DNA of 63,945 nt, filler included, from Bipalium vagum (taxonomy: Eukaryota), in the NCBI GenBank assembly GCA_037834085.1. It is 4 parts of 4 records of this genome, joined end to end, with 100 filler letters (N's around TTAATTAATTAA, not from the genome) between each part and the next. Parts side by side here need not be neighbours in the genome. Positions count along the whole stretch, not along the records: positions 16,214 to 32,033 come from JBBMKC010143833.1; 3 more parts are not named here. One strand, written 5' to 3'. The notes under the pieces were generated by a model. It saw only the letters and a program-made list of their open reading frames with translations. It had not been told where the DNA came from and did no database searches. The stretch's first letter is position 1. Every line of letters starts with the position of its first letter. The translations under genes were made by a program, and so were the position numbers. Shown here in pieces: positions 2,590-63,875 of the stretch.

Positions 2590-2970
2590 TTTAATCATAT
2601 ACAATAAATATTAACTGCTGATAACAATAAATAAGAGAAAAATTAAATACTTTCATTTGTGCTATTGAAGAAATGATTCTCGCCATTAAACAAAATATCT
2701 CTAATAATATTTTCGAAAGAATTTTCAATTTTTTCTAATAACCAATTAAATATTTTTCAAAATTTTCAACAATTCAAGAAATTATAAACTCTTTTGAAGT
2801 GCTTGGAATCATTACACAATAACAGGAATCTACTTAACTTATACTCAACTAATTTTTGCAAATTTTTAATAAATCAATTTATTTTACTATCATCCTCAAG
2901 GGAATACATAATTCAGCAAGTTTATTGGTAGCTCTTTTTTTCTCATTAAAAATAAAATAACCATTTATCA
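2590..2970 (+). repeat. Diverged inverted copy of ~6045-6490
   Basis: Shared blocks such as TTTTGAAGTGCTTGGAATCATTACAC, TTTCGAAAGAATTTTCAA and TCTCATTAAAAATAAAA occur here and as reverse complement at 6050-6490. Confidence 0.85.
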
Positions 2971-3250
2971 ACTCATGAGTTGGGATATTGTGTAACCAGA
3001 AAAGAGATATTAGCACTGCATGAATTCATTCTCCATTTCAAATAATATTTATACTAGAAACGTTTCATGACCCGTACGGATCATAAAGCTCTACTTTTAA
3101 GCATTCTATAAAAATCCAATTAATCCACAATTTCAAAATTGGCTACCTAACTTGTCGAAATTCAACTTTGAATGAAAGTATAGTAAAAGAAGAAGAGTAC
3201 AAAATACTGAAGGCTTGTCAAGAATATCAAATGTTTTGTGTTCTTGTAAG
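2965..3250 (+). mobile_element. Ty3/Gypsy RNase H fragment
   Basis: HELGYCVTRKEILALHEFILHFK*YLY*KRFMTRTDHKAL...FQNWL matches the Gypsy RNase H C-terminal motifs. Confidence 0.8.
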
Positions 3251-3497
3251 ATCTAACGAATTTCATTAATCATAAATAATTTCTATAAATATTATACAAT
3301 TCGAAAATTAAATTATTTTTAGCTCCAAAATTTACTCTTATATTCATTTTATATTCAAGTTTATCTATAACTAATATTATTGTAAACTCATTTTTCAAAG
3401 AAACCAATTTGTTCTTGCAAAAATCTTAGTTTATTGAAATGAATTTAATTAAAAACGTCATAAATATTCTATTAATAATCAATATCTCAAACTTTTC

Positions 3498-4360
3498 TTA
3501 TCTTCGTTTCAGTTTCAATATTACATACAAACTTATTCTTTTTTCTTTATGACAACCTTTTGCTTCCAGGCATTTGATCCATCGATTTATCACAGAAAAG
3601 AGATCATTTTCGAAGAAAGTTGTAGGCTTTTCAATGAAAACATCTTGAAATATTCGTATGAGATCATTTTTAGACTCAATTCTCTGACTTCGCAAATGCT
3701 TCATTAAGTGATGAAACAAGAACAAATCACTGGGAGCCAAATCAGGGCTATAAGGTGGATGTGAAACCACAAAACTTTTTTCCAGTATAACATCCACAGT
3801 TCGGTTAGCTTTATGAACTGGAGTATGAAGAGAAATAGGCCTTGATTCTTTGCCTTCCATCGCAGCTTTCTCAGATCACTAAGCAGTGCATAATAGTAGT
3901 GAGAGTCGTTGTTTCTTTGGACAAAGTCAATTTTGATCACATCTTTTGCATCCCAGAATACACTGAGAGTCAGAAATTTCCAATGAGATGTCCCTGAATG
4001 AAGCACCTTTGGTGCCTTTTCCTCAGGAAACACCCATTCACGAGACTCAGGCTTACTGTATAGAATGTAAAGGCTCAATGAAGTCTCGTTCTATGTTACA
4101 ATATTCTTCAAAAAACTCTGTTCAAGAAAATGAAATAGGTCCAAAATTTCTTGACATGTTTTCATTCGATTTTGTCGCATCTCTACTGTCAAAAAACGCG
4201 AAAACTCTGGCATACAATTTCCTGACTCCAATACTTTCTAGCATGTTCTGTACAGTCTTCTTAATTAAATTAAGTTTAGTTGAAAGATATCTCTGGATAA
4301 TTTGTCTATCTTCTTTGACGATTATTTTCAATTTTTGTCAACAAAAGCTTACCACTTAAA
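3498..4360 (-). mobile_element. Decayed mariner (DD34D-type) transposase
   Basis: Frameshifted pieces: ESREWVFPEEKAPK, SVFWDAKDVI, SHPPYSPDLAPSDLFLF, RWIKCLEAKG. Confidence 0.9.
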
Positions 4361-7269: not shown

Positions 7270-9290
7270 TATAGAAAATATAAAATGATCCCTCAAATAG
7301 AGAAATTAAAGGACATTTCATATATTAAAGAAAAATAAATTGAATTTATAAAAGAAGAATATTATTTGTAAGGATAACAGAAGACTATGAAACCATTGGA
7401 CGCTGAGGACGAATAGTATCAGACCCACAAATATGGATATGATTGGAAACTACGACATTACGACCTACAACTATAGTGAAGTTGACGAAAAGTTAAAGAG
7501 GAAAGTTAGGGACGAGACCCCAGATGGAAGGACTCTGTAGACGAGTTGATATTAACCTTGTGTTGTAACACCATGATTGTAACTTGCACGGCGGTTTGTC
7601 AGAAGAAGCATTTTGATGTGAAAATTACAAAATACAAATTAAATTCTTAAAGAAAAAATAGAAATAGAAAAGGAATTTTAAATACTAATGCCTACTGGAT
7701 ACAGGATCCAAAATAAATGTATTGAACGATATTGTTTTCAACAAACTGAGGACTGCTGACCACCTAAAACAGATATAAGATTAAAATGCTCGAATAATAC
7801 GATGCTAGATACTTTAGATGATTGCAACCAAGATTAGAGGGAGATAGGAACTAGTGGTACATATCGTGGAATTAGGCTTATGTCCAGACATCATAGGCAA
7901 GATCAACCATCGGATTTCGGGTATTTAAAATGACAGATAGTGCCATGGACACAACAAAGGCTTATAAATTTTGTTTTAGAAACAAAATTTGAGAAAGTAG
8001 GATCAGATGTGAAACATGTTAGAATAGCATTGAAGCTTCTAAGGGCAGCGATAACCTAGTTAGAATGATAAAAACAATTGAACAGCCTTAATGCGGACGA
8101 ATGGGATATCAAATGCACCAGGCTTGTAAAAAACCAAATAGTAACTAACGGGGATCCGATCAACATGAAAGCGTTGAGGTTGCCCATTAACCTGGCTGAC
8201 CAGATAAATGCAATGATACTACATCTTGGGAAAAATTGTATTGTTAATATACAATTAAATATTAACCAAACTGAATTTAATTTTGATTTCAAATTCCAAA
8301 ATACTGGTATGTTCGAATCAATTCTTTCAGCACAAAAGAAAAATCACTTCACAATAATATCACTTCGAACCAATTCGCTTAATTCTAGTTTTTGTTCTGT
8401 TTGAATTTGTTCTCTTGCTTTATTTTTGTTATAGTTTTGTCCTGCTAATATTGTTCTGATTGCAGAAAATCTAGTAGTTGCTTATGTATTCTCCAGTTTT
8501 CCTCAATTGGCTAATCATTAATCATTGCAAGGATAACTTCCTTCGTCTGACTTTGCCTACGCAGCAGCCCAGAGCTTTCAATTATCAAGCTAAACCAGAC
8601 CTTAGTCACCTAAGCTGAATAATTGACTCTGCGGCTGCTCTCAACAAAAAACCCCACGAGCTCTTCTTCTCTGCGTGGGCCATCCGCTCCCCCTTCCATT
8701 AAGAAAATGACAATTCGGGAGCTTAAATTAATTATTCAGATCGGCCCAAACGTGTTCACTCGAGCTGAATAATTGAATGAACTAGGTTTCCTAAAAAATC
8801 CTCAATGAGAATAAATTTTGGAAGAAATACAAAATAGAAACAATGAGAAATTAATTTTGGCACAGAGTGACGATGCTTTCCACTCATGTAAAAAGAATTA
8901 ATGAAAATTCCAGCTCTAATTTTTCAAGATTTTCGAAAAAATTCCTTTCAAAAACGGATGCAAACTTTGATACTATAGAGGACTGTTATCCTAAGAAGAC
9001 AACGACGGGAACGCGAGGGTAATTGGTTATAGATCACAAGAAATGAACACACATGAAATTGGATTCTGCATCACCAGGATGGAATTGTTAAGCATCTATC
9101 TTTTTAAATTTACAAGGAGCAGTAGTAAAGATGACAAATCATGTCCAGCATGCCAAAGAAACAAAGTGATAACAACAAAACAAAGAAACCAACCATACAA
9201 TTCATAGCTGGAGAAGTCCTCGAGAAAATATACACATGGATATGTAGTCATTCAAAGGAACCTTCAAGAGGAAGAAATATATTAAAAATA
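7270..9290 (+). mobile_element. Fragmented Ty3/Gypsy gag-pol remnant (protease, PR-RT linker, RNase H, integrase N-terminus)
   Basis: CLLDTGSKINVLN (~7689), DIKCTRLVKNQIVTNGDPINMKALRLP (~8105), VIGYRSQEMNTHEIGFCITRMELLSI (~9020), SCPACQRNK..EVLEKIYTWIC (~9140), in canonical Gypsy order with internal deletions. Confidence 0.85.
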
Positions 9291-9579: not shown

Positions 9580-11390
9580 ATGATAAGTTTGGCTAAAAAA
9601 ACTGAAGCCTTTGTTTAAAAGGAAGATGGATTAAATTACGCCAAAATAGGGTAAATATTTTGAAATTTCCAAGAAACTCAGAAATTAGTTTATGCAGATA
9701 TGTAAAGAAAGATATCTGTAAGAAACGGGGACAAAAGTTGGATTTGATTGTGATTTGAACATTTCTTTATCGGCTATTCAAAGGCACATGAGAAGAAGTG
9801 GAATGAGATATAAAAAAGTACATCTGATTTATTTAAGTAAGAAACATAAGGAAGACTGATTGTCAAAAGTAAGTAACTGGGTTAGTGAAAACCATGTATT
9901 GGAATAAAATGTTTTCACTGACGAAAAAAAAGTTTAGTCTGGATGGCTCTGATCATTGGCGAACATATGTTTCAAAAAATGAACATATTTGTCAACAGTG
10001 CCGAAAATGCGGAGCGGCGGCAATATAGTTTGAATGATGGCATTGCAAAATGGCTTATTGCCAGAATGTTATTAAAGAAAAATTTAATTTTGCAATATAC
10101 ACAATATCAATAAGAACTGATAGATTACTCAAAAGAATTTCAAGAGCAAACAATAACCTATCCGTGGTACAAGTAACCAATGACTTTTTATCTCAAAGTA
10201 GTACTACAATATCATCGAGTACAGTAAGAACAATCCTAAAAAAATTTGGAATTCATGGTTACAGAGTATAAGGAAACCTTTCTTATCAATAAGACAAAGA
10301 CAAAAGAGAATGTTATGGGCCAACAAGTATAAGAACTGGGATTTTAATAAGTAGAAAAATGTTGTCTTCAGTGACGAAAGCATTTTCCAGTGTTATAGTC
10401 AGCATGGGAAACAATGGGTGTTACGGACAGAAAATGACAAAGGCAAACCAGGAAATATACACCCAACTATGAGTCACGGACTTAAAATAGATGTATGGGG
10501 ATACTTTTCTTCAAATGGTGTGGGATTATTAAAGAAGATAGAAGGTTTCATGGATGACAAATTATATCAGAGAAGAAAAGAAAATGACATTGATGTCGTT
10601 GGTAAATGCTTAGTATTCCTCGAGATTAATTTCATATTCCAAAAAGACATGAAACCTCCACATAGAGCTTTGAGCACGTATAAAAAGTTTAAAAGTAAAA
10701 ATATTGATGTGATAAATTGGTCAGGAAATTCTCCGGATGTCAAACCAATTGAAAATATTTGGGGATACCTTAAGCATTCAATGCAAAATGTTCCATACCA
10801 TTCCAAAGAACAATTGTGGAAAGAAGTTTTAAAAAATTGGTATTTTTTGAATAGAAAATATTGTCAAAATCTCGTGGAATCAATGAAGATGCGAGTCAAA
10901 TCTGTTCTCAATATGAAAGGGCATCCAACTAAGTATTAGAATGTAATTGTGGTGCATATTTGATAAGCATATCTTGACTTACATTCGTTTTTATTTATTT
11001 TGATAGGGGGTGAACAAACCTTTGGAGGGTACTGCATATATACATATATAACTGTAAAAGTCAAGTACTGTGCAAATTTTGACTCAGATTTTTGACTACA
11101 ATTCTCTTGTTCACAAATCAAAAAAAGTCAAAGAATCTAGTGACATTAAGATTTTAAGTTGGTCAGCTAAAAGTCCTGATCTAAACATTGCAAAAGCCAT
11201 TTGGAAATTAATTTCAGATCAAGTCTAAGACGCTCCTCAATTTCAAAATGTCAATGAATTAACTACCAAACTGAAATATGTTGTGGACGACATTGTTCAA
11301 TCCTAACGTACAAAAATCACAAAATTGTTTAAATCTTACAGAAGACCTTTATGTAAAGTTTATTAAAAAGAAGTTCCTCATGTAACAAAT
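9580..11390 (+). mobile_element. Decayed Tc3/Tc1-like element interrupted by a second Tc1 insertion
   Basis: KKFSLDGSDHW (~9930) before the inner element and WSAKSPDLNIAKAIWKLISDQV (~11160) after it. Confidence 0.7.
10100..11034 (+). mobile_element. 5'-truncated Tc1 (DD34E) element
   Basis: STVRTIL, VVFSDESIF, FQKD(34 aa)E in WSGNSPDVKPIENIW, KGHPTKY stop at 10939; right TIR revcomp CAGTACCCTCCAAAGGTTTGTTCACCCCC ends 11034. Confidence 0.9.
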
Positions 11391-16749: not shown

Positions 16750-18360
16750 CTACAGTTCTCATCTCCTTTTCCTTCTTTCATGCTTTTCTCTCGTCATCAT
16801 CGGTTCAAAGTCATTATCGCTATCGTCCATATCGATAGGCGGAGATTAATATATTTCTGTGTACTTCTTGAATTGGTTTGTCAATTTCTTTGACTCCTCG
16901 TTCTCGGATTCTTCGCTATCTACGTCCATTATATCTGACCAGCGTCTTTTGGTTCTTACCTCTTCTTGCTTTCTTTCAAATATTGGTTTGGAAACTACTT
17001 TCCTTGAGTTTCTCTTTTCCTCAGATCTCAACCTTCGTTCCGTATCCTTACTGCCTAGTTGCTCAGGTGGGTAGTTCCTTTGTTTCTGGATTTCCTTCCC
17101 TGGGCCTACTAGCTCTTTTGTCAGATCATCTATGCATCTATCTCTGAGTATTATCCATACCTTCAGCATAAATGATACTTCCCGCTGTAGCGCAAAGGAT
17201 CCTCTCTGATCTATCATCTTCCGGTTGGTGTAATATTGGATCAGCATGTGCAGTGATACTGTTCCATCTCTTCATGGACTTCTAAGTTCATCTGTCTTTA
17301 CTACGGGCTGTGTCGCTAGATCTCAGTAGCCTCTGAACCAACTGTGATCCACTCTGACGCTATGAGACATAAAATTCCGTCATAGCCTACTACTACTTTT
17401 CCTTATAATAACTTCGTCAACTTCTTCTTCGTTTCTAGGTCATCCTCTTGGCCTTCTACCATTTCAGCTACAATGCTGTGATCACATGCTTGATAATCCG
17501 TCACCTGTGCTCGCGGAGTTATCAATGGTCGGTAGGCAAAATTCCCACTAGTATCCGTTAATGTATCTCCAAGTGAGAGCATCTTGGTGATGAATTGAGT
17601 CACTCTCCCATTTTCATCTATTAACAATACCTGGCTCATATCCGGATTCCTGAGCCACTTCTTGTCTACAAAAGGTTGTCTTCTTGACCATCTCTCTTCC
17701 GGGATTACCTCCCACTCTGCATTTTCCTTCTTTGCAGGTTTCCATGAATCCTCTGCGCCGCTAGAAACCTCTACTATTATGGGTTGGGTTTTCAACAAGT
17801 AGCATTCCATGCCATCTTCTCCCTTAATCTCGTTCGATGTTTGCGTTTCTGCGAGAAATTCTTCTACTCTAACTTCTTTTCCTCTATTCTCTAGGATTAG
17901 TGACCAACATAATACATTATTATACATAACTCTCTTCTACTCGCTTGAAACATGAAATTTGATTGATCAGCTTTATCTTCCAACACGGTTCCAAAATCCA
18001 TCCTACTCCATTGTTTGGTAACGGTTGTATCTCTGTTGACAGCTTCAAACTTGATAGCTTCCTCATCTTTCTTCTTCGCTCTCTTCTCCATCGCTTCTTG
18101 ATATGGCAACACAACTCTCCTGTTGCCATGATAATCAGTACTGCTCCACACGTTCCTGTGGTCATGACCCAATTGGTCATTCTCTCAATTGACTGAAATT
18201 CTTTTTTTTCCTTCTCGAGATTCTCCAAGTTTTCGTACTAACAATCTTTTAATGTTGACCACAATATGGTACTGAAACGTCTATGTGCCGTCAATGCTCG
18301 CCATCCACATCTCGGAGTAAATAATGCTTCTTCTTCATCCATGTTTACCATACCCATTTT
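16750..18360 (-). pseudogene. Retroelement-like accessory ORF with degenerate DEDDh (REX/ISG20/RNase T-like) exonuclease fold
   Basis: Purine-rich, higher-GC frameshifted ORF; core 17150-17660: VLLIDE..TLTDTSG..YRPLITPRAQVTDY...IVAEMVEG..LL*GKVVVGYD..GY*DLAT..SLHML..QRG; acidic/basic low-complexity tail. Confidence 0.6.
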
Positions 18361-18739
18361 GTAAGTGGAATTAAACCATATTATCAATAATTCCACTATT
18401 CGGTATCTTTGTTAATTTAAACTTTCTTTTGCAATTCTATAACTTTTTCTCTGATTTGCCATATAAATTCAACTTTAAAAGAGAAGGCCTTGTCAGGAGC
18501 TTGCCGCCTGATAAATATACTGTAGTCGCAGATGAAGGGTTCGTTGCTTTGCAACTTCATCTTTGATTACTTGTTTAATTACTTTTTATTAAATTAAAGT
18601 TTCCGAAATCATCATGTTAATCTGTTCAGTATTATCGAGAAGAAAATCCATAATACAAAAATATATTTCAAAAACAAGAATTTCGTTTCTGTTCTGATTA
18701 TTTAAATAATAATCATTAATAAAATTCAATTATTTCCAT

Positions 18740-19730
18740 TACATCTCTCGAAGAAATCAAGAATTACGAGAAAATATTTTTGGCCAAAAATGGAACACGA
18801 CCTTAGAAATTGGTGTCAGTCGTGTAAAATTTGTCAAATCCCAAGAGGAACAGGAGCAAGAACAAAAGTACCACTAAGACCAATTACAACTCCTGCAGCA
18901 CCAATAGAAATGGTGGCAATGGACATCGTTTCTGTTGCCAGAAGCGATATTGGGAAGCAAATTTATAATTGTTTTATGTGATTACTTTACTAAGTGGCCA
19001 GAAGCGTACCTAATGAAGGATCAAAAAGCAGCGACCATAGCCAAAAGCTTTGTGGAAGAAATCATTTTTAGGTACGGCGCACCAAGGAAATTATTGACGG
19101 ACAAAGACACTAATTTTATGAGCTAGTTGATCAAAGAGATATGTGTGCTATTTGCGATTTTGAAACTTAATACGTCACCGTATAGACGACAGACGGATGG
19201 AGTAGTGGAGAGATTCAATGGGCCTCTATTCAAAATGTTGTCATCATACACAAATAAACAGCAAACTGATTGGGATTTGCACATTCCATCGTGTTTATAT
19301 GCGTATCGTAACGCAGTACATCCAGTAACAGGGCAGACGCCTTTTTAACTGATGTATCTTAGGAATAATAATATGCCAATTGATTTGGATTATGTCAAAG
19401 CAACATCACAATATTTGGAAGAGGAGGATTATAAAATTGTGATTCAAGAGAGACTGCAGAAAGCCTGGGCAAAGACAGGACTCAATATAAAATATGGACA
19501 AAAGAAGTACAAAGAGCGTTATGACAAATCGGCAAAAGGATACAATTTCAGAGTTGGTAACAAAGTGATGGTCGAAACACAGAGCTGATTAGAGGCAAAA
19601 CACAGAAGCTGCAAAGAACGTTTAAAGGTCCGAATACCGTGGAGAAAGTGACACCAACAAATTTGGCATTAATAAGCACACGAAAATCAGGATCATCGTC
19701 TATTATGCATTCAAATCGTTGTAAGAAATG
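18740..19730 (+). mobile_element. Ty3/Gypsy integrase (HHCC tail, DDE core, GPY/F region), pseudogenised
   Basis: FWPKM..WCQSCKICQ, EMVAMDIV, CDYFTKWPEAY, RYGAPRKLLTDKDTNF, TSPYRRQTDGVVERFN, YAYRNAVHPVTGQTPF, KLQRTFKGP. Confidence 0.95.
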
Positions 19731-19749
19731 GGTGAAACAGGTCAAGGAA

Positions 19750-20400
19750 CGATACCCGTTACGATCCAGAAAGCAGAGGAACCTAGTAACAAGTGTTAAA
19801 CCATCAAGATGGCTTTGGCTACCATTCATAATGCTATGTGGAACAGCAGGAGGAGCAGAAACGAAGGAAATCAAGGTCAGTGTGAGAATTTCCGGCATCA
19901 GGATAACAGGGATTTTAATTTTAATATTTTAGGTATTTTAATTATTTGGCATATTTAATACATTATGTATATATTTTTTATTTTATATTTTATATATTTT
20001 TATCTTTATTAAATTCATATTTTTCTTGTTTCTGTATGTTACTTTTACAAAGAATGTTTTTAGGTCTATCCTCTATGACCTATTTTTTTATTTTAAAAAG
20101 TTGGGGTCCTGTCTTCAAAATAAAAGACCAGGCTGTTTTTGCAAGAATGATGGGAAAAGTCATTTACAGTTATAAAAGCGCAGTAGTAAATGTTCCGTTG
20201 AGGAGACCTGAAGAGTGCACAAAAGAATTACCTGTCATTTTGCAGAAAAAGCAACGATTTGTGGCACTAGTCACCAAAATTTTGAGCAAGACTTCAAATC
20301 GTGCGAAGATGTCATAATTGGATCTCTAGATGGTTCGTCTCGAAAGCAGAAAAGTTCTTTTGGGATAACATCCAAAGATTGACGGAAGAAATGTGTCAAT
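19750..20400 (+). pseudogene. env-like glycoprotein remnant (signal peptide in frame with integrase plus chuvirus-glycoprotein-like fragment)
   Basis: RYPLRSR then RWLWLPFIMLCGTAGG-AE (19807-19857); 20126-20317 AVFARMMGKVIYSYKSAVVNVPLRRPEECTKELPVILQKKQRFVALVTKIL resembles the recalled chuviral G motif GEVxxxxKCxxVxVxxRxxxxCxxELPV...FxxPxTxIL. Confidence 0.65.
19915..20115 (-). repeat. Partial inverted copy of the mini-element at 22581-22834, lying within the env remnant
   Basis: Revcomp GACAGGACCCCAACTTTTTAAAATAAAAAATAGGTCATAGAG...AAAATATGAATTTAA matches 22607-22750. Confidence 0.85.
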
Positions 20401-20549
20401 AACAATGGCCATTATTTTGAATAAATTATTTTTCATTTTTGTTTCGAAATTACTAGGCTTCGGTTATTAAAAATTCCTCATTATTTATTTGTACTCATAA
20501 TAGTTCTTCAATTAGTAATAAAAAAAAGTATGGATTTTTCTCTAATCAA

Positions 20550-21125
20550 CACAGGAAACCAAAAACGAGAAAGAAGAAAAAAGTGGTACCAACGGCGAAA
20601 TATATAAAAATTAAACGAAAACCAAAAATGGTACCAATAAGATATACGTTATTAACAGGATTGCGAACACAAATATAACTAGCATTATATTCTTTTTTAT
20701 ACGATGAGATACCATGCGAAGAAAAGGTAGTAACTGAATTTTCAGATGAGAAGTTACCAGAACAAGAATTAGATAAAGATAAAGTAACCATATTGAATAT
20801 CCCCGAATATAAACATCGTGTTAATATGCTGAAAATGAATAATCAAAGGAAATACAGAAACGACTATAAAAGCGTGGTAAAAGTGAAAATGAATCGTCGA
20901 GTTTTATTACCGTTAATAGAATCAGGAGCAACAGTATCGATTATTAATAATAATGTTTTGACAGAGAAGAATAGGATGCAATCAGAATCAGGTGCTCAAA
21001 AAGTATCATGACAGAATTTTGAGTTTTGAGGTAAAGTATTATACCAAGTAGAACTGGGAGGTCACAAAATAGGGTATGGTCTGAGAGTGATGGCCAACTG
21101 TTCATATGGCCGACTGAATATTGAT
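20550..21125 (+). mobile_element. Gypsy gag-end/retropepsin remnant
   Basis: VKVKMNRRVLLPLIESGATVSIIN (degenerate LIDSGA protease motif) followed by GKVLYQVELGG. Confidence 0.65.
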
Positions 21126-22072
21126 CTGGATGGATATTCTATTTCAAGCTTAAGAAATTTCAACTACCGTGCTACGTAAATTTAAAGAATAAATTAATAT
21201 TTTTTAAAGACAAAGTTAAAAACCAAAATATTTATAAGAGATTTGATCAGAAAGAAGATCAATAGCAATAATTATGTCCTAATTCGAAATAGCATCTTTT
21301 GTTGCAGCATTCCTTGACGCACTCATGTCGTGGAACCTGCGTATGTCTTAAGTAACCTGAATATTATTTGGCCATAAAATACCATAGGCAAATATAAAAT
21401 CGCTTACAAAGCGATCCATGTGTCACGTCAAGTATCCCAAAATTAAGTACCAAAATACAAATTTTTATATATATATATATTAAAATACAATTATTTAAGT
21501 AATACTGAAGTTGATTAAGTGTTTTGGTACAATTTTGGTACAGATTTTTATTAATTTAAAAAAAATAACCAATAATTTGAATAGAAAATTAAATATATCA
21601 GCTTCTAATTTTAAATATTGACATATGAAATAGTCCATTTAAAAAAATAATATTTGTATTGTGTAATTCTGCTGCTTGAGTATGAAGCTAAAGAAATTTC
21701 ATTTAGCGTCGTACGTAAATTTAAAGAATAAATGAATATGTTTTTCAAGACTGACATAAAATTTTATTTATCAGTTTCAAACTGTAAAGCTAATATTTAT
21801 TATTTAGAAAATATAAATTATATAAATCGTAAAAGATATAAAAATGAATTTTTAAAACTAAATTGACAACTTTGGTTTTAGGCAATAAAAAACAATAGCA
21901 AGTCAGTTAAAAACCAAAATATTTAATCGAAACTTGATCCAAAATATCCATCAGTACAAAAATTAATTCTATTTAGAATATCACATAATTTACTGCAACA
22001 TTTTGTTCTGCACTCATGGTATTGAACTTGATAAATAGTAAAAATGTAAAAAATGTAAAATAGACATCTAAA

Positions 22073-22510
22073 CATTTACCAGATCGTCATTTTGCTGATT
22101 TTGAAATGATAAATGAAATGAGAATTATTCAAAATCTAACCTCAACAGAAAAACTTGAAAGAGCTTTAGTAAAATTAATCGTGAAGAGTAACCTAACAAT
22201 AAACTTCAAAGATCAATTACTATTTCTCTTAATGAAGCGAGTTCTGATCTAGAAAGCCATGCTTTCGCATCTAAAAATTAAACAAAGTTTGCAAAGGCGA
22301 AGCCTCGTTTCAATATTGGTAATAAAGTTCTAATTGTTAAATATAAAAAATTAATTTTAAAAGGTTACACAATAAAACGGACAGATGGAATATTTATTAT
22401 AAATAAAATTTATTATATAAATCCTATTGTTTATGGCATTATGTATTTAAATGATGAAAGTTTATTAGGGAGATTTTATGAGAATGAGTTGCAACAATGT
22501 TACTTGAGAT
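22073..22510 (+). mobile_element. Polinton/Maverick relic: PLA2-like protein C-terminus joined by deletion to integrase C-terminus
   Basis: DRHFADFEMINEMRIIQNLTSTEKLERALVKLIVKS (22073-22195); KPRFNIGNKVLIVKYKKLILKGYTIKRTDGIFIINKIYYINPIVYGIMYLNDESLLGRFYENELQ (pattern of Polinton integrase C-terminus). Confidence 0.85.
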
Positions 22511-22580: not shown

Positions 22581-22834
22581 AGTAGCTAGTTAAACCAGAC
22601 TTTCATGACAGGACCCCAACTTTTAAAATGAAAAACAGGTCATAGAGTAGACACTTAAAAAATATTTGTAAAAAAAACATACAAAAACACAAAAATATGA
22701 ATTTAAGAAAGATAAAAATATTTAAAATATAAAATAAAAAATATACCTAAAATATTTTTTCACAAAATTCAGGATGTTTTTTATAAAAAAAAGATTGAGA
22801 ATCCTCTCCTTAAAGTCTGGTTTTACTATCTACT
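22581..22834. mobile_element. 254-bp TIR-bounded non-autonomous mini-element
   Basis: Left AGTAGCTAGTTAAACCAGACTTT vs right revcomp AGTAGATAGTAAAACCAGACTTT (21/23); second partial copy at 19915-20115; no clear TSD. Confidence 0.7.
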
Positions 22835-23599: not shown

Positions 23600-23950
23600 G
23601 TTCACAAATTCATTCATCAATTGGTATTTCTTCTAATGAAATAAGTAAAAATTCTGAAAAACTATAGACTGAAACAAATCGATAAAATTTCTACTCTTTT
23701 TCAATTATCCTTTAAACCAAAAGACCAGCAAAGTTGGCAGGAGACAAAGCGTCCTTTTCATATTGGTGATAGATTTCGAATTTTTAAGTATGAAAATAAA
23801 TTCGAAAAAGGTTATACAGCAAAATAGAGTGATGAACTTTCTATTATTCATGAAATTTATTATACAAATGCAATTGTTTATGGAATAATAGATTTAAAAG
23901 GAGAAAAGATTTTAGAACGCTTTTATGAGTGAGTTACAAAAACCATTATT
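23600..23950 (+). mobile_element. Second Polinton/Maverick integrase C-terminal relic
   Basis: IHSSIGISSNE...PFHIGDRFRIFKYENKFEKGYTAK*SDELSIIHEIYYTNAIVYGIIDLKGEKILERFYE. Confidence 0.85.
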
Positions 23951-24899
23951 TTAGTAACAGTGTGCGCAGGATGGATTTTTTTCATCAAACCATCCTTATT
24001 ATTCTAATTTATTTTTATCTTTTGAAATCAACTTTTTTGATAATGTTATTTAAAGGTTAGTTTTAGTTTTGATTATAATTAACCTGAGAATGTAAAACCT
24101 TTAAAATAGAAATGAAAAGGTTAAAAATAATTAAAATCTTTTGTTAAGTATCACCATACTAACTGGTAATGATTATAAATAAGGATGACAATAAGATTAA
24201 AATTTAATCATCTTGTAATAAAAAATAACATCAAAGCATATTTTTGGAACAGTGCTGTTCCTGAAAATTTCTATTTAAAGAATTTTTACGTTCATAATTT
24301 ATTTATCTTCTTTTTAAAATGACTGAAGCTGGAAAGTTTTTTTAATTTATTGGAAAATATTCCAAAGCAGAACTATCTTTTGCTGCTAGTTATTTTTCTG
24401 ACCAAGATATAAATGTTTTCCTTAAACTTCGTGAACAATTAGAGAAAAATATTCAACAAGATCATTCAAATTTCTCGAAGTTTGATAAACAATCACAGAA
24501 AAGAGCATCTTCTGATTCTATGTTTGCAACAATTATTGTACAAATAAAAAGAGAGCTTACAATATATGAAAGAACAGAAAATATGGACAATATTTCTCTT
24601 TCTTTTGATACATGTTCATACTATTCAATTTTTTAAATGAACAAAATTATCGATCTTCATTCCAAACTAATTTCAGTTGGGTTGGCTGCAAACCATATTA
24701 GATTATTAACATTTTTTAACGTGGTAAGCTTTATCATCAATTGAAGACTACAAAATTTGTGAATTCATGGAATGAAGTATGTTCTTCTCAGAAAATAAAC
24801 TACAAAATATTATTGAAATTGGTAAGCCAAAACATATTACATTTAATGGAGAAAATATTACCTTTCCAACAAAAATTAATTACTGAAATTAAGGAACTG

Positions 24900-25331
24900 A
24901 TTAATAATCAAACTGAAGAACAAAAATCAGGTGCAATTATTCCATTGATACCAATAATTGGAGCAGTATTTGCAGGTTTAGGAGCAGCTGGTGAAGTTGC
25001 TGGAGGAATTGTAAGAACTATTTATAAACCAAAAAAAGAAGCAGCAAAAAATAATGCAGAAAAGGAAAAAATATAATTAGAGAAAAAGAAATTACAAGTT
25101 CAAGTTTAAAAACTAAACCCACAAGAAACATTTACAGTTGAAGCTGGACTTTGCGGAACAGCCGCTGCAAGCACCGGTGGTGGCTTATATTTTGATTATT
25201 TTTATCTGATTATCCATTAATTACTAATTATCAAAACACAAATCAAAAAGAAATTCATTGGATTGGATATTATAAAACTTTTTACTTTGATTCTAATGGT
25301 TTACCATCACTTGAAAACATGTTAAAGAATA
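24900..25331 (+). mobile_element. Polinton/adintovirus morphogenesis relic: GG-rich amphipathic (pVI-like) protein and adenain-like cysteine protease
   Basis: KSGAIIPLIPIIGAVFAGLGAAGEVAGGIVRTI; TGGGLYF; ITNYQNTNQKEIHWIGYYKTFYFDSNGLPSLE (HW...YFDSxGL protease motif), cut by the Tc1 insertion. Confidence 0.75.
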
Positions 25332-25333
25332 TA

Positions 25334-26530
25334 CAATCCCCGCCAAAAGTCATTGGTCACTCTTAAAATTTTAGAAAAAAGCATTTATATGATTCTAGTC
25401 ATTAATATTTATTAAGGACAAATATAAAGAACGTTAACGACATTAGAAATAAGTTCATAAGAACATTTATAATTATATTTTAATAATTTATATGATGTCC
25501 ACGGGCTGAAATGACAGCTTGGATGCCATTGGGCATAGAATCAATCAGCGTTCTACAATATTCTGCTGTTATCTCAAGTATCGATACTTGCCTGATTGCT
25601 TCTTTGAGTTGTACCAATGAAGTTGGGTGTTTACTTGCCACTTTTTTCTTAAGTAAGACCCAAACATTTTCTATAGGGTTTTGATCGGGAGAAGAACCAG
25701 GCCATGGTGATAGAACATCAAAGAATTGGATATCAAACCACCACATAAACTTCTTCGCACGATGACACGGAGCCCCATCCTGCTGAGAAACACTTGTTTT
25801 GTGCACCATCATTCACTGCGGTAGTATATCTTGTAACAATTGTAAATAGTTGTCAGCTTTCATGGTTTCATTTTGTGGGACAATATGAAAGCCTCCACAC
25901 CCTGCTGCAGATATGCTCCCCCAAACCATGACCTTAGGAGAATTTTTGACGGTTGTAACCACATATTTGGGATTGTATCTCTGTCCAATAGGTGGACGAA
26001 CATGCTGACAGTAGCTGTTGAACTGAGATATCATTGTTTCGTCGCTGAACTGCACCTTTTGCCATTCATCTACTCCCCAGTGGGCATGAGCTTTAGCAAA
26101 TGATAAGCGATCACTAATATTTTTAGGAGATAACAATGGTTTTTTGGAAGGTAGACAGCATTTTAGACCACTTTCATACTGCAAGCGACCCTGAATGGTA
26201 CGAACACTATGAGCATGTGGAATTTGCGAGAGGGATGATTGTATATAAGATGCTGTAGTAGTAGGATCGATTACAACTGATCCGCGGATGACTCTGTCTG
26301 TCTGCTTGCTTGTCACACGAGGTCTTCCAGATCGTTGCAGTGAGTGAAAGCGGTCAGTAGTACCGTAATGACAGACATCCTTCTGCAAGGTATAGCCAAC
26401 AGTAGATCGCGGAATTTGGAGTTGAATAGAAATATCGCGATTTGATAATCCTATCTCATGCAGGGCAATGATGTGTGCCCGTTTTTCTGGCAATAATTCC
26501 TTACCTGGCATATTTATATTTCTCTACAAA
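25334..26530 (-). mobile_element. Nearly intact Tc1-family element with DD35E triad
   Basis: TA + TIR CAATCCCCGCCAAAAGTCATTGG at 25334; transposase 26511-25480 (343 codons) broken by one in-frame TGA at 25813-25815; RSGRPRVTS, FSDET, QQDGAPCH(35 aa)E in WPGSSPDQNPIENVW; other TIR missing. Confidence 0.93.
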
Positions 26531-26559: not shown

Positions 26560-27070
26560 CATTGCCCACCTTTTTTCAAGAATATTAACCCAAACATATA
26601 TTTAATGCAAATGAGACTGGTTTATTTTATCGTTTATTGCCTCATGAAACACTGTCTTTTAAAGGTAAATCGCACCATGGGAGGTAATTGTGTAAAGAGC
26701 GTATTACAGTACTTTTATGTACGAATATGGCGGGAACATATAAGATGAAACATTATATTATTAGTAAATCGGCTCACCCAAGATGTTTTAAGTATGTTAA
26801 AACATTGCCATTGGATTATAAGACAAATAAACGAACCTGGAAGAAATCCGAATTATTTAATGAATGGCTAATTTTCTGTGACAAAATAATACAAAAGGAA
26901 AATCGAAAAATTCTCATGCTCTTTGATAACTGTGGTGCTCACAATGTTAAAGTCAGGCTTGAAAATATCAGGATAATGTTCTTATCACCGAATACAATGG
27001 CCAAACTGCAGCCACTTGATCAAGGTATTATTTGAAATTTTAGAGTATTTTACCGTAATTTTCTAGTATT
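26560..27070 (+). mobile_element. Tigger-like pogo DDE fragment
   Basis: IFNANETGLFYRLLP, KERITVLLCTNMAG, LFDNCGAH, SPNTMAKLQPLDQGII. Confidence 0.9.
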
Positions 27071-27811
27071 GTATTTATTTTTACAATATTAAATCGAGAC
27101 ATTTTTTAAAAATAAAATTTTTAATATTTGGATTTTTTTGTTTATGATCATGTTTAATAAATAAATCATTACTTAAACCTTTTAAAGCTACCAACTATCC
27201 AGACAACATATGTTAATAATTTAAACTCAAATGATATATGAGAAACAAAAATTTTGATAACAAGTTTTGTAATCTTCCTTAAAATTCATGAAACTTCCTT
27301 TTTAATTGATTATTATAAATGCTTATTTTTTTATTATTTCTGTTTACCAATTTTGATTTACAAGTGTGAAATTAAAATTTTAACTTTTTATATAGGGGAA
27401 AATTGTAAAATATTTTTTGTTACAATACTCTGTAATGTGGAGCATTATTTTATATATGAGCATAAATGATATTTTCATTTCAAGATTGTTTTCTTAACAA
27501 TCTTATTTTGTTTATTTAAACTAAATATATTTAACTTTATAAATATTAGCTTATAAATTCAAATTTATTTTATTGTTTACATATTTTTTATTGAAAAATA
27601 GTACATTATCCATATCTATTTAATAATAAAGCCACAAAAAATTTAAGAAAAATATTTGAAAATTAATTTTATACTACTGATTGTTAATATCCTCGAGATT
27701 TAAATATCTCTAAACTTAAAAATTATTCTTAAATTTCTTTTTGGTAATTTTGAATGATAAGAATGTTCATTTTAGAAGCAGATTTGTTTTTTCATTCAAT
27801 AACAACCAGTT

Positions 27812-28333
27812 ATGTCACAAATTAATGCAAACTTTCAAGACTTAATATCAACCAACAACAACAATAATTCTTCTAATAACCTTGAAAATGTTACTGGAAC
27901 GACTCTAATAACTTCCGAAGCTTTGCAGCAATTTTCCATGGCAAATCAATTTGCCATTTGTGCTAATTCCGGCAGTGGACCCGTTATATTGTCTTGTCTG
28001 ACTCCTATGCTTTTACCCACCCTTGCTTCAACATCGAAAGGTAATTTTGATCTCTCTAACCAAGACAATCGAGGACAAAACTCAAATCACGCCATCGTCC
28101 AACCGCAGACCGTTCAAATTCAACTTGCCAGCCCATTCAATTTGACCAATAATGTATGCAGCCCGAATACTGTACAATCCTTGCCGTCTCTCGGGCTGTC
28201 CTACATAAACCTGTCTTCACTTGGGAACGCAGGAAACGCGTTTCCCATACAAATCACGCTAAGTAATCCCAATAACAACCAGCCGATCACCATACCGACT
28301 GCAACCCTTAACAATCTAAATCAGGAGCTGCAG
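27812..28333 (+). CDS. Host coding exon, Q/N/S/T/P-rich low-complexity N-terminal domain; candidate upstream exon of the RBMS-family gene
   Basis: 174 open codons with higher GC than flanks, upstream TTTTAG acceptor (27775), CAG|GTAAAA donor in phase 0 at 28333/28334. Confidence 0.7.
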
Positions 28334-28869
28334 GTAAAAAATATTTTGAATATTTTCCGCAAAAAATTAATTCGTTAATTTTTCTGGAGATGTCTGTATG
28401 AATTAAAGATATCAAAAGTAATTTATTAAACTAATTATTAATGCATAATTGAGTTTTATATTTTGAATTAAATCAATATATTTTAAAAATTCAATATTTC
28501 AATATTAATTACTTTTGAAGTAATAATAATAAACGTCGAATCTCTCCTTTAGATTATTTGAAAATGAAATTCGAATAAATTATTGAAGGTCAAATTTTTG
28601 TTTTAAGGCATATATCTGATATTTAATAAATCCTAGTTAAAGAAGAAAAATGTATATTATTTTTATTTGAACCAAATTTTTTTTCCAATTGCCAAATGAT
28701 GCTTCTGTTGTTAAAAGTTTGAGAATACCGAAGTACAAACAGAGAATTGCAGGCAAATACTATCAATAAAAAACGATACTGTTTTTTATTAAGGTTTTAA
28801 ATTAAGTTTAAAATAAATTATAATTATCTGGTAAAAGTTATTATTTACAAATATTAGTCATTTCTTGTG

Positions 28870-37032: not shown

Positions 37033-38644
37033 CCGTAAAATCCCACGTATGATACGCAGCCAAATTTTGAAAAAATAATAAGGTTAAATAAGTGAGATTT
37101 TCATTTTTTATAAACAAACCATATATTTTATGAAAATACAGATAATTAACAAGTCAGTGAGACATCTTCGTCTTCAGAGCACCTAGAAAGATGTACTCTA
37201 AAATCATCCTCTTCAATATCTTCTTTCTCTCCATCATAGTAGACTTTCACCATCATCATCTTCTGAGAATTTTTTCCTATACTTCTTCGAATAAATAAAA
37301 GTTCTCAGTCCCGTCTAATTTATTTGAAATTCCACATTTTAAGAATCCCTTCCGAATGATATCTTCATCGAAATCATTCCAGCATGTTAGTATCAACTCG
37401 GTAATTTTGTGAAGTAAAATTTTACTCATGCGGTAAAAGTATGTTCCCCATCACTAAGCCAATCACTCAAACGCATTCTTAAGACATCCTTTAATAGCTT
37501 GTTGATAGATACGTCAAGAGACTGCAGTATTTTGGTCATGCCACCTGGAATGATTACTAAATCTGATTTAATTGCTTTGATCTTTTCTTTAAATGATAGC
37601 ATCCGATGAGTGTAGAAAGAGTCCAGGACTAGCATTGATCTTTCTCCTTCTTGATGCCATGGACAAACTCCTCAGACAGATTTCAGCCAGTTCAAAGTTA
37701 AGGTTTAGTCCATGCACCCTTTAGGATGAATTTTTACATAAATACCTTTTGGAAATTTTATCCCTTTTGGGAGAGTTTTTCTTTTAAAAATTATTTAAGC
37801 AGTTAGCTTTCCACCGCTAGTACTGCATACAAGTATAACTGTGAAACGTGATTTTTCACTCCCTATAAACCTTGTTGAATTTTTTGTTGTCAATTGTTAA
37901 GTGAGGTAAGTGAAATCTGGTCAGTATTCCAGATCTGCATAAGATCATAATTGTTATTTTTCCTTAAATTAATAAAATACAATTGAAGTTTATCTTCATG
38001 ATCGTCTGGAAGACATTGTGAAATGTTTTTCTTCGAACTGATAGATTAAAAGGCTTCATAAACAGAATTACCCATCCATAAGAATCTTTAAAAATAGCGT
38101 TGTTTGGAAAGCTTTTTTGTAATTCTAAAGCTTTTTAACCCAGCTCTGTGCCCGAAATTCATATAATATGTTGTCTTTTGGCACAAACCCATTTTAAGTC
38201 CGGAAAAATTCATTAGCTCATCAATTAGCCATTTTTTGAATGGCATATGTACCTTTTTCCCATAGAAGTACGTTTGTTTCATTTACGGAAAAATGTCGAC
38301 TTGAAGCTCGATTACTCTAGGTTTCAGAAAATTAAAATTCGAGAATTTTCGGCGGCAGAGTTATTTCTTGTATTTACTTTCTTACTATAACAAAATAACA
38401 GTATAAAAATTATTAGAACTAAAATAACTATCTTACTTTCAAATTTCAGCTTAAAACAATTAATCAAAAAGTAGTTCAAAAATATTTATAAATAACCCAA
38501 TATATTTAAATATATGTGCTCTAAAGATTTAATAATAATTATGATTCAATGTTTATGATTTCAATGATTCATTTCACTCTTGTATAATAATAATGAGGGG
38601 AAAATGAGATAAAATAAGTGCGTATTATACCTAAGATGTTACGG
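37033..38644 (-). mobile_element. Decayed POGK-like pogo element
   Basis: TIRs CCGTAAAATCCCACGTATGATACGCA and revcomp CCGTAACATCTTAGGTATAATACGCA with TA flanks; LVLDSFYTH, IPGGMTKILQSLDVSINK, KCGISNKLDG. Confidence 0.9.
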
Positions 38645-56880: not shown

Positions 56881-58151
56881 TCAGGTGAGTCAGAAAGTAA
56901 CCTCGTTTTTCTAATTATTCAAATTAATTGCTAAATATTGACAATTTTATTGGTGTTTTAATAATATTGATACAGAAATATTTGAAGCGCAATATTTGAA
57001 ATATAAGAAATCATATTTATTTTTTAAATTATAATTTATATAATTCAGTGGCTACATTTGTCCCGACTAAGCAAAATGTTTGAAATTGGCTCCTGTACTA
57101 ATATATCCGTGGATCTACGGCCACAGTACCTGCCGTTAATATTAATGACATAAATAAAGGATTCATTAATATTCGCCAAGCACAGGAATGGTTTTCCAGA
57201 TTCATGTCTGGTGACTTCAATCTCAATGAACATGAAAAAAATGGACGTCCACCAACGACTGACGACGCATTATTGGAAGAACTCATAAGTAGCGATTCAC
57301 GATTAACGACTGAATAGATATAAAAAACCCTCGGCTGTAGTCCTACTACAGTTAAGACGCACTTACATATGATTGGAAAGTCATATAAGGCAGATGACTG
57401 GGTACCTTATGAATTGACCGAAAAAAAGAAGCTGTTAGACTATCTGTTTGTCAATCACTGATTCTGAAGAACAACAGTGATCTGTTTCTTCAACGTATTG
57501 TCACGGGGGACAAAAAGTGGATTCAGTACCACAATCCAAAAAGACAAAAGTAATGGTTATTTCCTGTGAAACCCCCATTCCAACACGAAAACCAGGTCTT
57601 CATCATAAAAAACCTATGCTTTGCATTTGGTGGGATTGTCGTGGGGTAATCTATTTGGAATTGCTCGAATCAAATCAGACAATTGATGGCAACAAATACT
57701 GTGATCAATTGGACAAATTAAATGAGAACTTGATTAAAATTCTTTCAGCTTTAGTCAACAGAAAAGGCGTCATTTTCATCAAGACAATGCCAGGTCACAC
57801 ACCTCGAAGATCACATCTAAAAAAAATTAAAGACTTAGGATGGGAAGTTATGGCTCACCCACAATATAGTCCAGACATTGCTACAACAGATTTTCACCTC
57901 TTCAGATCTTTGCAGCACTTCTTATCTGGAAAAGGATTTCAAAATGAAGATCAGGTCAAAAAGTAGATCTAATCATTTATTGACTTTTAATCTTCCTAGT
58001 TCTTTGAAAAATGGATGAAATGCTTGGTTGACAAGTGGCAGGCTATAGTAAAAAATAATGACGATGTGATTGATTTATGATAAATTTAAATGTAAAAATT
58101 TGTAAAATAAAATTTTGTGATAAAAACGAGGTTACTTTCTGACTTATCTAA
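56881..58151 (+). mobile_element. Full-length decayed mariner (Hsmar1/cecropia-like motifs)
   Basis: 30-bp TIRs TCAGGTGAGTCAGAAAGTAACCTCGTTTTT / AAAAACGAGGTTACTTTCTGACTTATCTAA; AQEWFSRF, WVPYELTE, IVTGDKKWI, MLCIWWDCRGVI, HPQYSPDIATTDFHLF. Confidence 0.93.
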
Positions 58152-62772: not shown

Positions 62773-63803
62773 ATGAACGGCAATTCCAATGGTCACATAT
62801 CTCCGAAAGACTTTTCTTCAGGAAATCAAATCAAAACGTCCAAAACCAATTTATACATTAAAGGCTTGCATAGCAACTTTACCGATGAAAACATTCTTGA
62901 TTTGGCACCGGACAAAAGTCTGGTGCGTTCCGTGAAAGCTGCCATAGAAGACGACAAGAAATGTAAAGGTGAATAGTGAATATTTGTTAATTATTCCAAG
63001 CAAATAAACGTCATACAGGATATGGATTTATTGAATTTGTCACACCCGAAGATGCTCTCTATGGACTGGCATATATCCAGGAAAGACATCCTAATTTTAC
63101 GATCAAATTTGCAAAAGTATGTCATTACTAATGTCAACGTTTGAGGAACCAATTCTGATCTGACTGTATTTAATTTCAGGAAAACGAGAAAGATAAAACT
63201 AATTTGTACGTCACAAATCTCCCCAAATCCTGGACCAGCAAAGACAGCGACAAATTGAAGGTCATTTTCGAAAAATATGGAGAAATTCAGTCTGCTTTTA
63301 TTATGCTGGAAAAATATGCCAATAAACCCCTCGGTTAGTTTTATTTGAGGAATTTTCTTTTGGTTTGTGAGAAAAATATTCTTGAGGATAACATTTTTTC
63401 TCTTGGTTGTCCACATAAAGCTTCACAATAAATGTTTCTCATAAGTTATTAAAAGCATTTTTGATAATCTCAAATAATATCCAATGTTATTAAATGAACG
63501 CAAACAAATTCTCATAACATTAAATATTTTGTTCTTGGATCAAGGTGTGGGATTTGTCAGATTTTTCCAAGAAGAATCAGCTCAACTAGCAATCAGCGAT
63601 TTGGAAACCAATCCACAAGTATTGCTGGAAGATTCTTCCTGTCCTTTGGAAGCAAAATATGCTGACAAACATAGCACGGATTCCCGGCGCAAACATTCAG
63701 TTCTGAAATCTGGAGTCAATGGAAAATTACAGAGCTCAAACCAAACGCCGCTATTGACAAGTCCGAATGGTTCTCAAATTCTGACGGCTTTAGTCGATAA
63801 CAG
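62773..63803 (+). CDS. RBMS: RBMS/MSSP/alan shepard (shep, sup-26)-family two-RRM RNA-binding protein; exons 62773-62968, 63019-63116, 63180-63333, 63545-63803, continuing beyond the window
   Basis: Spliced frame: SKTNLYIKGL..KAAIEDDKKCK|GYGFIEF..IKFAK|ENEKDKTNLYVTNLP..|GVGFVRF..PLEAKYAD; all introns GT-AG (50, 63, 211 nt) and phase-consistent; motifs match RBMS family. Confidence 0.9.
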
Positions 63804-63875
63804 GTACTGCATTGATTATTAAGTTTAAGGTTCAGAGAATCTTATTTGATTTTAAAATTTGTATCATTTTATTGA

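Follow-up and report, generated by a model that had tools for sequence, protein, structure and literature searches.

Does the stretch of Bipalium vagum DNA analysed here (the window; 63,945 nucleotides, assembly GCA_037834085.1) carry a Gypsy element whose pol gene is fused to a chuvirus-type envelope gene, as an earlier note on this DNA had proposed? We propose that the locus is very probably a dead, rearranged relic of a giant Gypsy element, likely of the Burro type, and that its order of integrase and envelope glycoprotein (G) is likely a secondary rearrangement. The apparent integrase–envelope fusion is then likely a by-product of that rearrangement. Stops, frame changes and large deletions interrupt the GAG, ENV and POL frames of the window copy, which is inert and encodes nothing functional.

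The Gypsy integrase relic spans 18742–19785 in three frame segments, all on the plus strand. It opens with a 5′-truncated H2C2 zinc-binding domain (18742–18933; Pfam PF17921, E 6.2e-9, and tblastn of relatives), continues with the integrase core (18935–19585; Pfam rve, E 1.4e-5, and 53–62% identity to P0001–P0013 and L001–L011), and ends with the C-terminal GPY/F region and a basic RYPLRS motif (19591–19785; tblastn and phmmer to relatives), a motif common to the window integrase and its relatives. Frame changes near 18933 and 19585, at both ends of the core, and two in-frame stops within it mark the integrase as a pseudogene. The H2C2 domain, the rve core and the GPY/F region bear out the assignment of this backbone to Ty3/Gypsy rather than BEL/Pao; the PR–RT–RH–IN order is seen in the relatives, and no Pao-type Pfam domain occurs in those scanned. 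Neither RT nor RNase H was detected in the relic part of the window by tblastn of relatives or by family profiles. No long direct repeat that could represent a flanking LTR pair surrounds the relic in the window, as expected because only a fragment remains.

A protein search with the integrase core returned 29 proteins, 13 of which (P0001–P0013) match at 53–61% identity over more than 90% of the query. A metagenome scan with the same core gave at least 69 loci, at least 11 of them (L001–L011) at 54–61% over the whole core; these best 11 among the at least 69 are referred to below as the close loci. Identity to the closest intact relatives is only 53–62% (window core against proteins and metagenome loci), and the comparison set is made up of protein and metagenome relatives rather than other copies of the window's subfamily in the host genome. 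In an integrase tree of 77 rows, the window falls inside a 27-row clade together with the giant Gypsy relatives (SH-aLRT 93, which is below the tool's mark of 95, in a quick version of the tree). The source of one integrase relative, P0001, assigns this protein to a bacterial MAG (Turicibacter sp.); eukaryotic DNA has probably been binned there with a metagenome assembly.

The closest relatives are giant single-ORF Gypsy elements of 3,184–4,844 aa, which encode one polyprotein in the order (Gag)–G–protease–RT–RNase H–integrase. The fuller order is Gag, signal peptide, gB-type fusogen, transmembrane helix, at least one retropepsin, RT, RNase H and integrase. The 3′ part adds a second signal peptide with an ectodomain and a transmembrane helix, in some cases preceded by one more retropepsin; a DEDDh exonuclease is then encoded in an ORF of its own further downstream. 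The single ORFs of L004, L007 and L010 measure 3,184, 3,703 and 3,426 aa, with a Gag carrying CCHC knuckles in L004 and L007 and a later start in L010. The longest relative, P0037 (4,844 aa), combines G, six retropepsin stretches, ankyrin repeats, RT, RNase H and integrase, and has a C2H2 finger too. The env region lies in frame between the Gag region and the protease in L004, L007, L010, P0031, P0036 and P0037.

When the G proteins were compared with the 69 metagenome loci listed, matches were confined to L004, L007 and L010, each time ahead of the integrase; the other 58 loci beyond the close set gave none. These three are all of the close loci with more than 3 kb before the integrase (3/3), and P0037 also carries G upstream. 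Downstream of the integrase, G was found in 0 of the 11 close loci (2.3–7.8 kb after the integrase). The idea of a Gypsy pol with a fused chuviral env therefore holds in part: that integrase and G fragment belong to one element family with env in frame with pol is supported by these sequence comparisons, and the proposed pol-to-env order is not.

The window holds three pieces in a non-native order, namely A (exonuclease, minus strand), B (integrase and peptide, plus strand, starting with the H2C2 domain) and C (G and protease, plus strand, starting with the G fragment). Piece A contains a broken exonuclease-ORF relic of the DEDDh/RNase T-like type in two frames (16804–17705, minus strand), which was recognized with a profile of 11 related ORFs (17705–17379, iE 1.6e-8; 17358–16804, iE 1.3e-5) and by single-sequence matches; Pfam alone gave no match over 16804–17705. 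The rest of piece A (17706–18312, minus strand) is likely the end of the polyprotein region, judged from strand skew, with its breakpoint at 18312 taken from a contig joint. Near 18171–18076 (minus strand), a hydrophobic stretch ends in a basic tail; this is suggestive only, as the transmembrane profile score there is non-significant (iE 0.82). The strand skew is −0.28 in piece A, +0.16 to +0.22 in the other pieces and +0.17 to +0.27 in the sense strands of the relatives; piece A is read on the minus strand, and its skew therefore agrees with the relatives' sense strand. Between the inverted pieces lies an AT-rich segment (18313–18741) of very high copy in sequencing run X1, of which 18313–18740 is not part of the MITE described below by local alignment.

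In piece C, the G fragment is followed by a degenerate retropepsin (20841–21107, plus strand; family protease profile iE 5.8e-8, Pfam RVP E 0.078), and residues 1641–1748 of L004, the protease after env, align at 20778–21101. Piece C keeps the native env-to-protease order, with a spacing of 257 codons versus 365–561 in the relatives. Pieces B and C meet at a truncated MITE copy (19910–20119, plus strand), whose left edge is a probable rearrangement breakpoint. Its inverted matches begin at 19923, and 19970–20119 is 86% identical, over 150 nt, to 22601–22745 on the minus strand. The second copy is complete (22581–22834, minus strand), with 33-nt terminal inverted repeats at 22581–22613 and 22802–22834. 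The mini-element that had been suspected between peptide and glycoprotein is thus real; the first copy has no outer terminal repeats and is therefore not a clean insertion. One contig of run X1 joins 18312 to 19910 on opposite strands (depth 24, shorter side 95 letters), a pattern that fits an inversion reaching to the MITE edge on one side; this is a single joint of ambiguous direction, and it is not independent evidence if X1 is the window's own source. The present order of pieces would result from deletions and from an inversion that broke the DNA near 18312 and 19910.

A mis-join by the assembler between repeat copies at the MITE could also produce this order and would leave the family assignment unchanged, but we regard it as improbable. 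The window does contain seven N runs, repeats abound in this region in run X1, and 19910–20126 is spanned by none of the eight contig pieces listed. However, no N run falls between 16213 and 32034, and 17683–18108, 20424–20836 and 21013–21450 recur as contig pieces without differences, which bears out the assembled sequence locally, with the reservation that X1 is possibly the window's own source. Among the sequencing runs listed, one carries the sequence and no RNA run does, which gives no information on expression.

A single stop-free frame (19561–19932) leads from the C-terminal GP(Y/F) region of the integrase by way of RYPLRSR to RWLWLPFIMLCGTAGGAE, which confirms that the integrase frame continues into a hydrophobic, signal-like peptide. 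This peptide and about 17 further codons (19795–19909, plus strand) align with the post-integrase peptide of L001. Profile scores over 19795–19909 are iE 0.084 for the signal versus iE 2.1 for the protease N-terminus, both non-significant, and the window residues after the integrase resemble the first strands of a retropepsin. The post-integrase tails of 23 relatives, sorted partly by eye, begin with a signal-like peptide in 12, a retropepsin in 8 and neither in 3; a transmembrane helix closes most of them, and PF24664 is found in none of the 23. We take 19795–19909 for the likely beginning of the membrane protein that follows the integrase; the start of an extra retropepsin is a rival of clearly lower probability. 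As judged from the sequence, it is not the start of G under either reading. The peptide thus probably once opened the second membrane protein; profiles of the post-integrase tail, the transmembrane helix and the single fibronectin-III module found nothing significant in the window.

The earlier note had taken this peptide for the signal peptide of G, which is not supported, since G lies upstream of the protease in the relatives. The proposal also fails on the structure of G itself. In all seven full-length relatives, a conserved cysteine motif (the G N-terminal motif) follows the G signal peptide, and 353–373 residues separate this motif from the matched block, so that some 360 residues of G would be expected before the block. 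In the window, the motif is absent after the peptide, and only 95 codons, MITE included, lie between the peptide and the G fragment. It is nevertheless conceivable that the window represents a true pol–env fusion subfamily, in which the peptide would be the G signal peptide and most of the N-terminal half of G would have been deleted around the MITE. Peptide and G do lie 265 bp apart on the same strand, proteases and membrane modules occur on either side of pol in the modular relatives, and GAG-POL-ENV elements with a gB-type env exist in other animals (PMC13524379). We consider such a subfamily very improbable, because G follows the integrase in none of the 11 close loci and is present in none of the 23 tails, the G N-terminal motif is missing from the residues left after the peptide, a protease follows the G fragment as it does in the upstream position, and the downstream exonuclease ORF is inverted on the other side. 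The locus also serves as a caution that neighbouring fragments in a shuffled relic can mimic a gene fusion.

The internal G fragment (20126–20314, plus strand) comes from a chuvirus-type, herpes gB-like fusion glycoprotein of about 650 residues, of which some 60 are left. It starts about 265 bp past the end of the hydrophobic peptide and beyond the mini-element, close to the 270 bp noted before; it lies in a different frame, and there is no continuous reading from peptide to G. The block matches Pfam PF24664 (Monjiviricetes_fusion; E 8.7e-7, 27.7 bits against a cutoff of 27, profile positions 368–423 of 653), the kind of match to a viral glycoprotein profile that had been called for, and it also scores at iE 6e-17 against a profile built on six related G proteins; because of these two scores, the similarity is not due to chance. 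A phmmer search with the fragment in 1.84 billion proteins gave seven matches, five of them with PF24664, to which the fragment is 43–59% identical; the other two, P0030 and P0032, are repeat-rich, without PF24664, and were dropped as chance matches. A word-indexed search with the 63-aa fragment yielded 0 of 14 candidates and the ESM Atlas no usable match, both weak blanks. The G profile gave 2 matches among 7,998 longer proteins scored, neither with an integrase, and none of five pattern matches in viral contigs was confirmed.

The window fragment aligns to the G of L010, whose structural model (low confidence, mean pLDDT 58) matches chuvirus/xinmovirus G (E 2e-27; 16–22% identity among the top matches) and herpes gB (E 2e-9) in structure searches. 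Read through this gB-like model, the fragment is a predicted class III fusion glycoprotein, and its description as chuvirus-type and class III is upheld. That it might instead be an endogenous chuvirus element of non-retroviral kind, inserted next to a Gypsy fragment with which it has nothing to do, as the Monjiviricetes name of the Pfam family and the Gypsy fragments that often flank such elements in insects (PMC10084718) might suggest, is hardly credible and already largely refuted: the two longest of the five PF24664-bearing matches run on into retropepsins, none of the seven matches bears a viral name, viral G proteins among the top structural matches are only 16–22% identical to the L010 model versus 43–59% for the fragment's own matches, and a retropepsin follows the G fragment in the window.

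With the family established as giant Gypsy elements with env before pol, the closest described system is the planarian Burro/GYPSM1, whose 4,873-aa ORF places env, in the same frame, after a BCL2-like region and before the protease; this env matches mononegavirus fusion proteins (PMC6431247). The likeness extends to a single huge ORF (4,873 aa versus 4,844 aa in P0037), a CCHC Gag, an in-frame env before the protease, ankyrin repeats in some members, accessory ORFs, and decayed copies, reported for Burro in Dugesia japonica (PMC6431247). Among our relatives, ankyrin repeats occur in L005, L006 and P0037, a RING ORF in L008, and a weak Bcl-2 match, below cutoff (E 9.6e-4), before G in P0033. 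The window copy differs in being fragmentary and shuffled, and no BCL2-like, ankyrin, BIR, MATH or RING cargo was found in it. BIR and MATH domains, reported in Burro1, are likewise missing from the Pfam scans of the relatives, and the accessible text of PMC6431247 mentions neither a fibronectin-III membrane protein nor several retropepsins nor a DEDDh ORF such as the relatives have. An expansion of Burro1 in Geoplanidae and Dugesiidae is cited in PMC13465017. The window element is likely Burro-type by architecture, rather than by direct comparison with the Burro1 sequence, and we do not file it under Burro1–4.

Flatworm elements of the GAG-ENV-POL type with a gB-type env, including Smed_errantivirus_1–6 from Schmidtea (1–215 copies), are described in PMC13524379, where such elements do not form one clade. 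According to supplement 6 of the same source, pol matches in three triclad genomes number 0, 0 and 0 for POL-ENV elements versus 16, 59 and 830 for ENV-POL elements. The Smed elements share gene order and the gB-type fold with our relatives, and 7–10 of 10 short motifs of their domains I–II recur in order in the relatives' G proteins, compared with at most 3 in shuffles; the motif patterns were written with both sets in view and are supporting rather than blind evidence. PMC13524379 retained only intact elements, with uninterrupted GAG, ENV and POL frames as the rule for inclusion; the broken window copy is a relic of this lineage instead. The window fragment lies outside domains I–II, and the link to Smed_errantivirus_1–6 runs through the relatives.

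The same source lists 114 arthropod GAG-POL-ENV gypsy elements with a chuvirus-like G (PMC13524379). They combine a Gypsy pol with the same glycoprotein class in the arrangement first proposed for the window; however, env stands after pol there and before pol in the window's family. In insects, the Gypsy association of chuvirus elements is only fragmentary (PMC10084718). The mosquito element Anakin also uses a chuvirus-like G as env (PMC7642597), but on a BEL/Pao backbone, whereas the window has a Gypsy GPY/F integrase and relatives without Pao-type Pfam domains; an Anakin-type BEL/Pao pol is ruled out by the Gypsy-type integrase. Troyka was also rejected, as a group described without env and without GPY/F (PMC12440569). 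Gypsy elements with a chuvirus-like env are thus already in print (PMC6431247, PMC13524379), the claim of a new lineage is not supported, and the locus is an ordinary decayed repeat.

The env-before-pol order has a further parallel. Nematode non-canonical ERVs with env before pol in a metavirus were reportedly described by Sacco in 2022; they share this order with the window's family in a different host phylum.

The chief interest lies in the cargo of the relatives, namely a fibronectin-III membrane protein behind the integrase, repeated retropepsins and a DEDDh-exonuclease ORF. For these features of Burro elements, no description was found in the searched literature, and an earlier description may exist. 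The model of the L010 post-integrase ectodomain shows two beta-sandwiches (pLDDT mostly above 80 over residues 1–220), and every match listed in a Foldseek search of the PDB is a fibronectin-III tandem (best E 7e-7). Atlas features of P0003 agree with fibronectin-III (scores 0.81–0.84) and serve as a lead only. A single-domain module of signal peptide, fibronectin-III-like domain and transmembrane helix is also found between env and the main protease in L010 (4802–5100) and at the P0007 N-terminus, so that such a module occurs on both sides of pol; Burro-type relatives shuffle modules freely. Pfam recognizes a DEDDh/RNase T-like exonuclease in the downstream ORF of 5 of the 11 close loci, and BLAST similarity ties together the ORFs of 10 of the 11 (L011 weakly). 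Examples are L005 8592–9920, L006 9043–10371 and L010 10617–12104, with the ORF doubled in L005 and L006. The RING-finger ORF of L008 lies at 2684–4135.

Class III proteins such as gB fuse membranes. In intact elements, internal signal peptides and transmembrane helices would route G and the fibronectin-III protein into the ER and secretory pathway, where host signal peptidase, together with the element's retropepsins, would cut the polyprotein, the retropepsins freeing its cytoplasmic portions. Through G, particles would acquire an envelope capable of fusion. A more far-reaching scheme, which we consider doubtful, is that Burro-type elements form two-glycoprotein enveloped particles from one polyprotein: the class III fusogen before pol would be complemented by a captured fibronectin-III type I membrane protein after the integrase acting as an attachment factor or receptor decoy, up to six retropepsins would do the cutting, and the DEDDh exonuclease would counter host RNA defence. 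If true, this would make them infectious retroviruses of flatworms with a surface of herpes-like complexity, and with the fibronectin-III protein on particles, cell-to-cell spread of Burro elements would become directly testable.

The window is AT-rich (27% GC, with AAT repeats), which, like its many Tc1/mariner relics, suits the planarian host that the element family makes likely but is not diagnostic of it. Relics of Tc1/mariner and pogo-like (DDE_1) transposases are numerous in the window (10355–10939, 25480–26523, 26688–27035, 37426–37671, 57481–57966 and others). Two more degraded Gypsy RNase H fragments on the plus strand (2965–3250 and 8980–9105) are nearer to distant relatives than to the Burro-type clade. 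Integrase C-terminal-like fragments at 22283–22497 and 23729–23942 are 74% identical to each other, and an ORF at 24720–25076 (plus strand) has a hydrophobic Gly/Ala-rich stretch; Pfam found nothing in these three segments, which presumably resemble Polinton/Maverick debris. Finally, two probable host exons were recognized by eye on the plus strand (27803–28378 and 63478–63822), containing a Gln/Asn/Ser-rich stretch and the end of an RRM-like domain.
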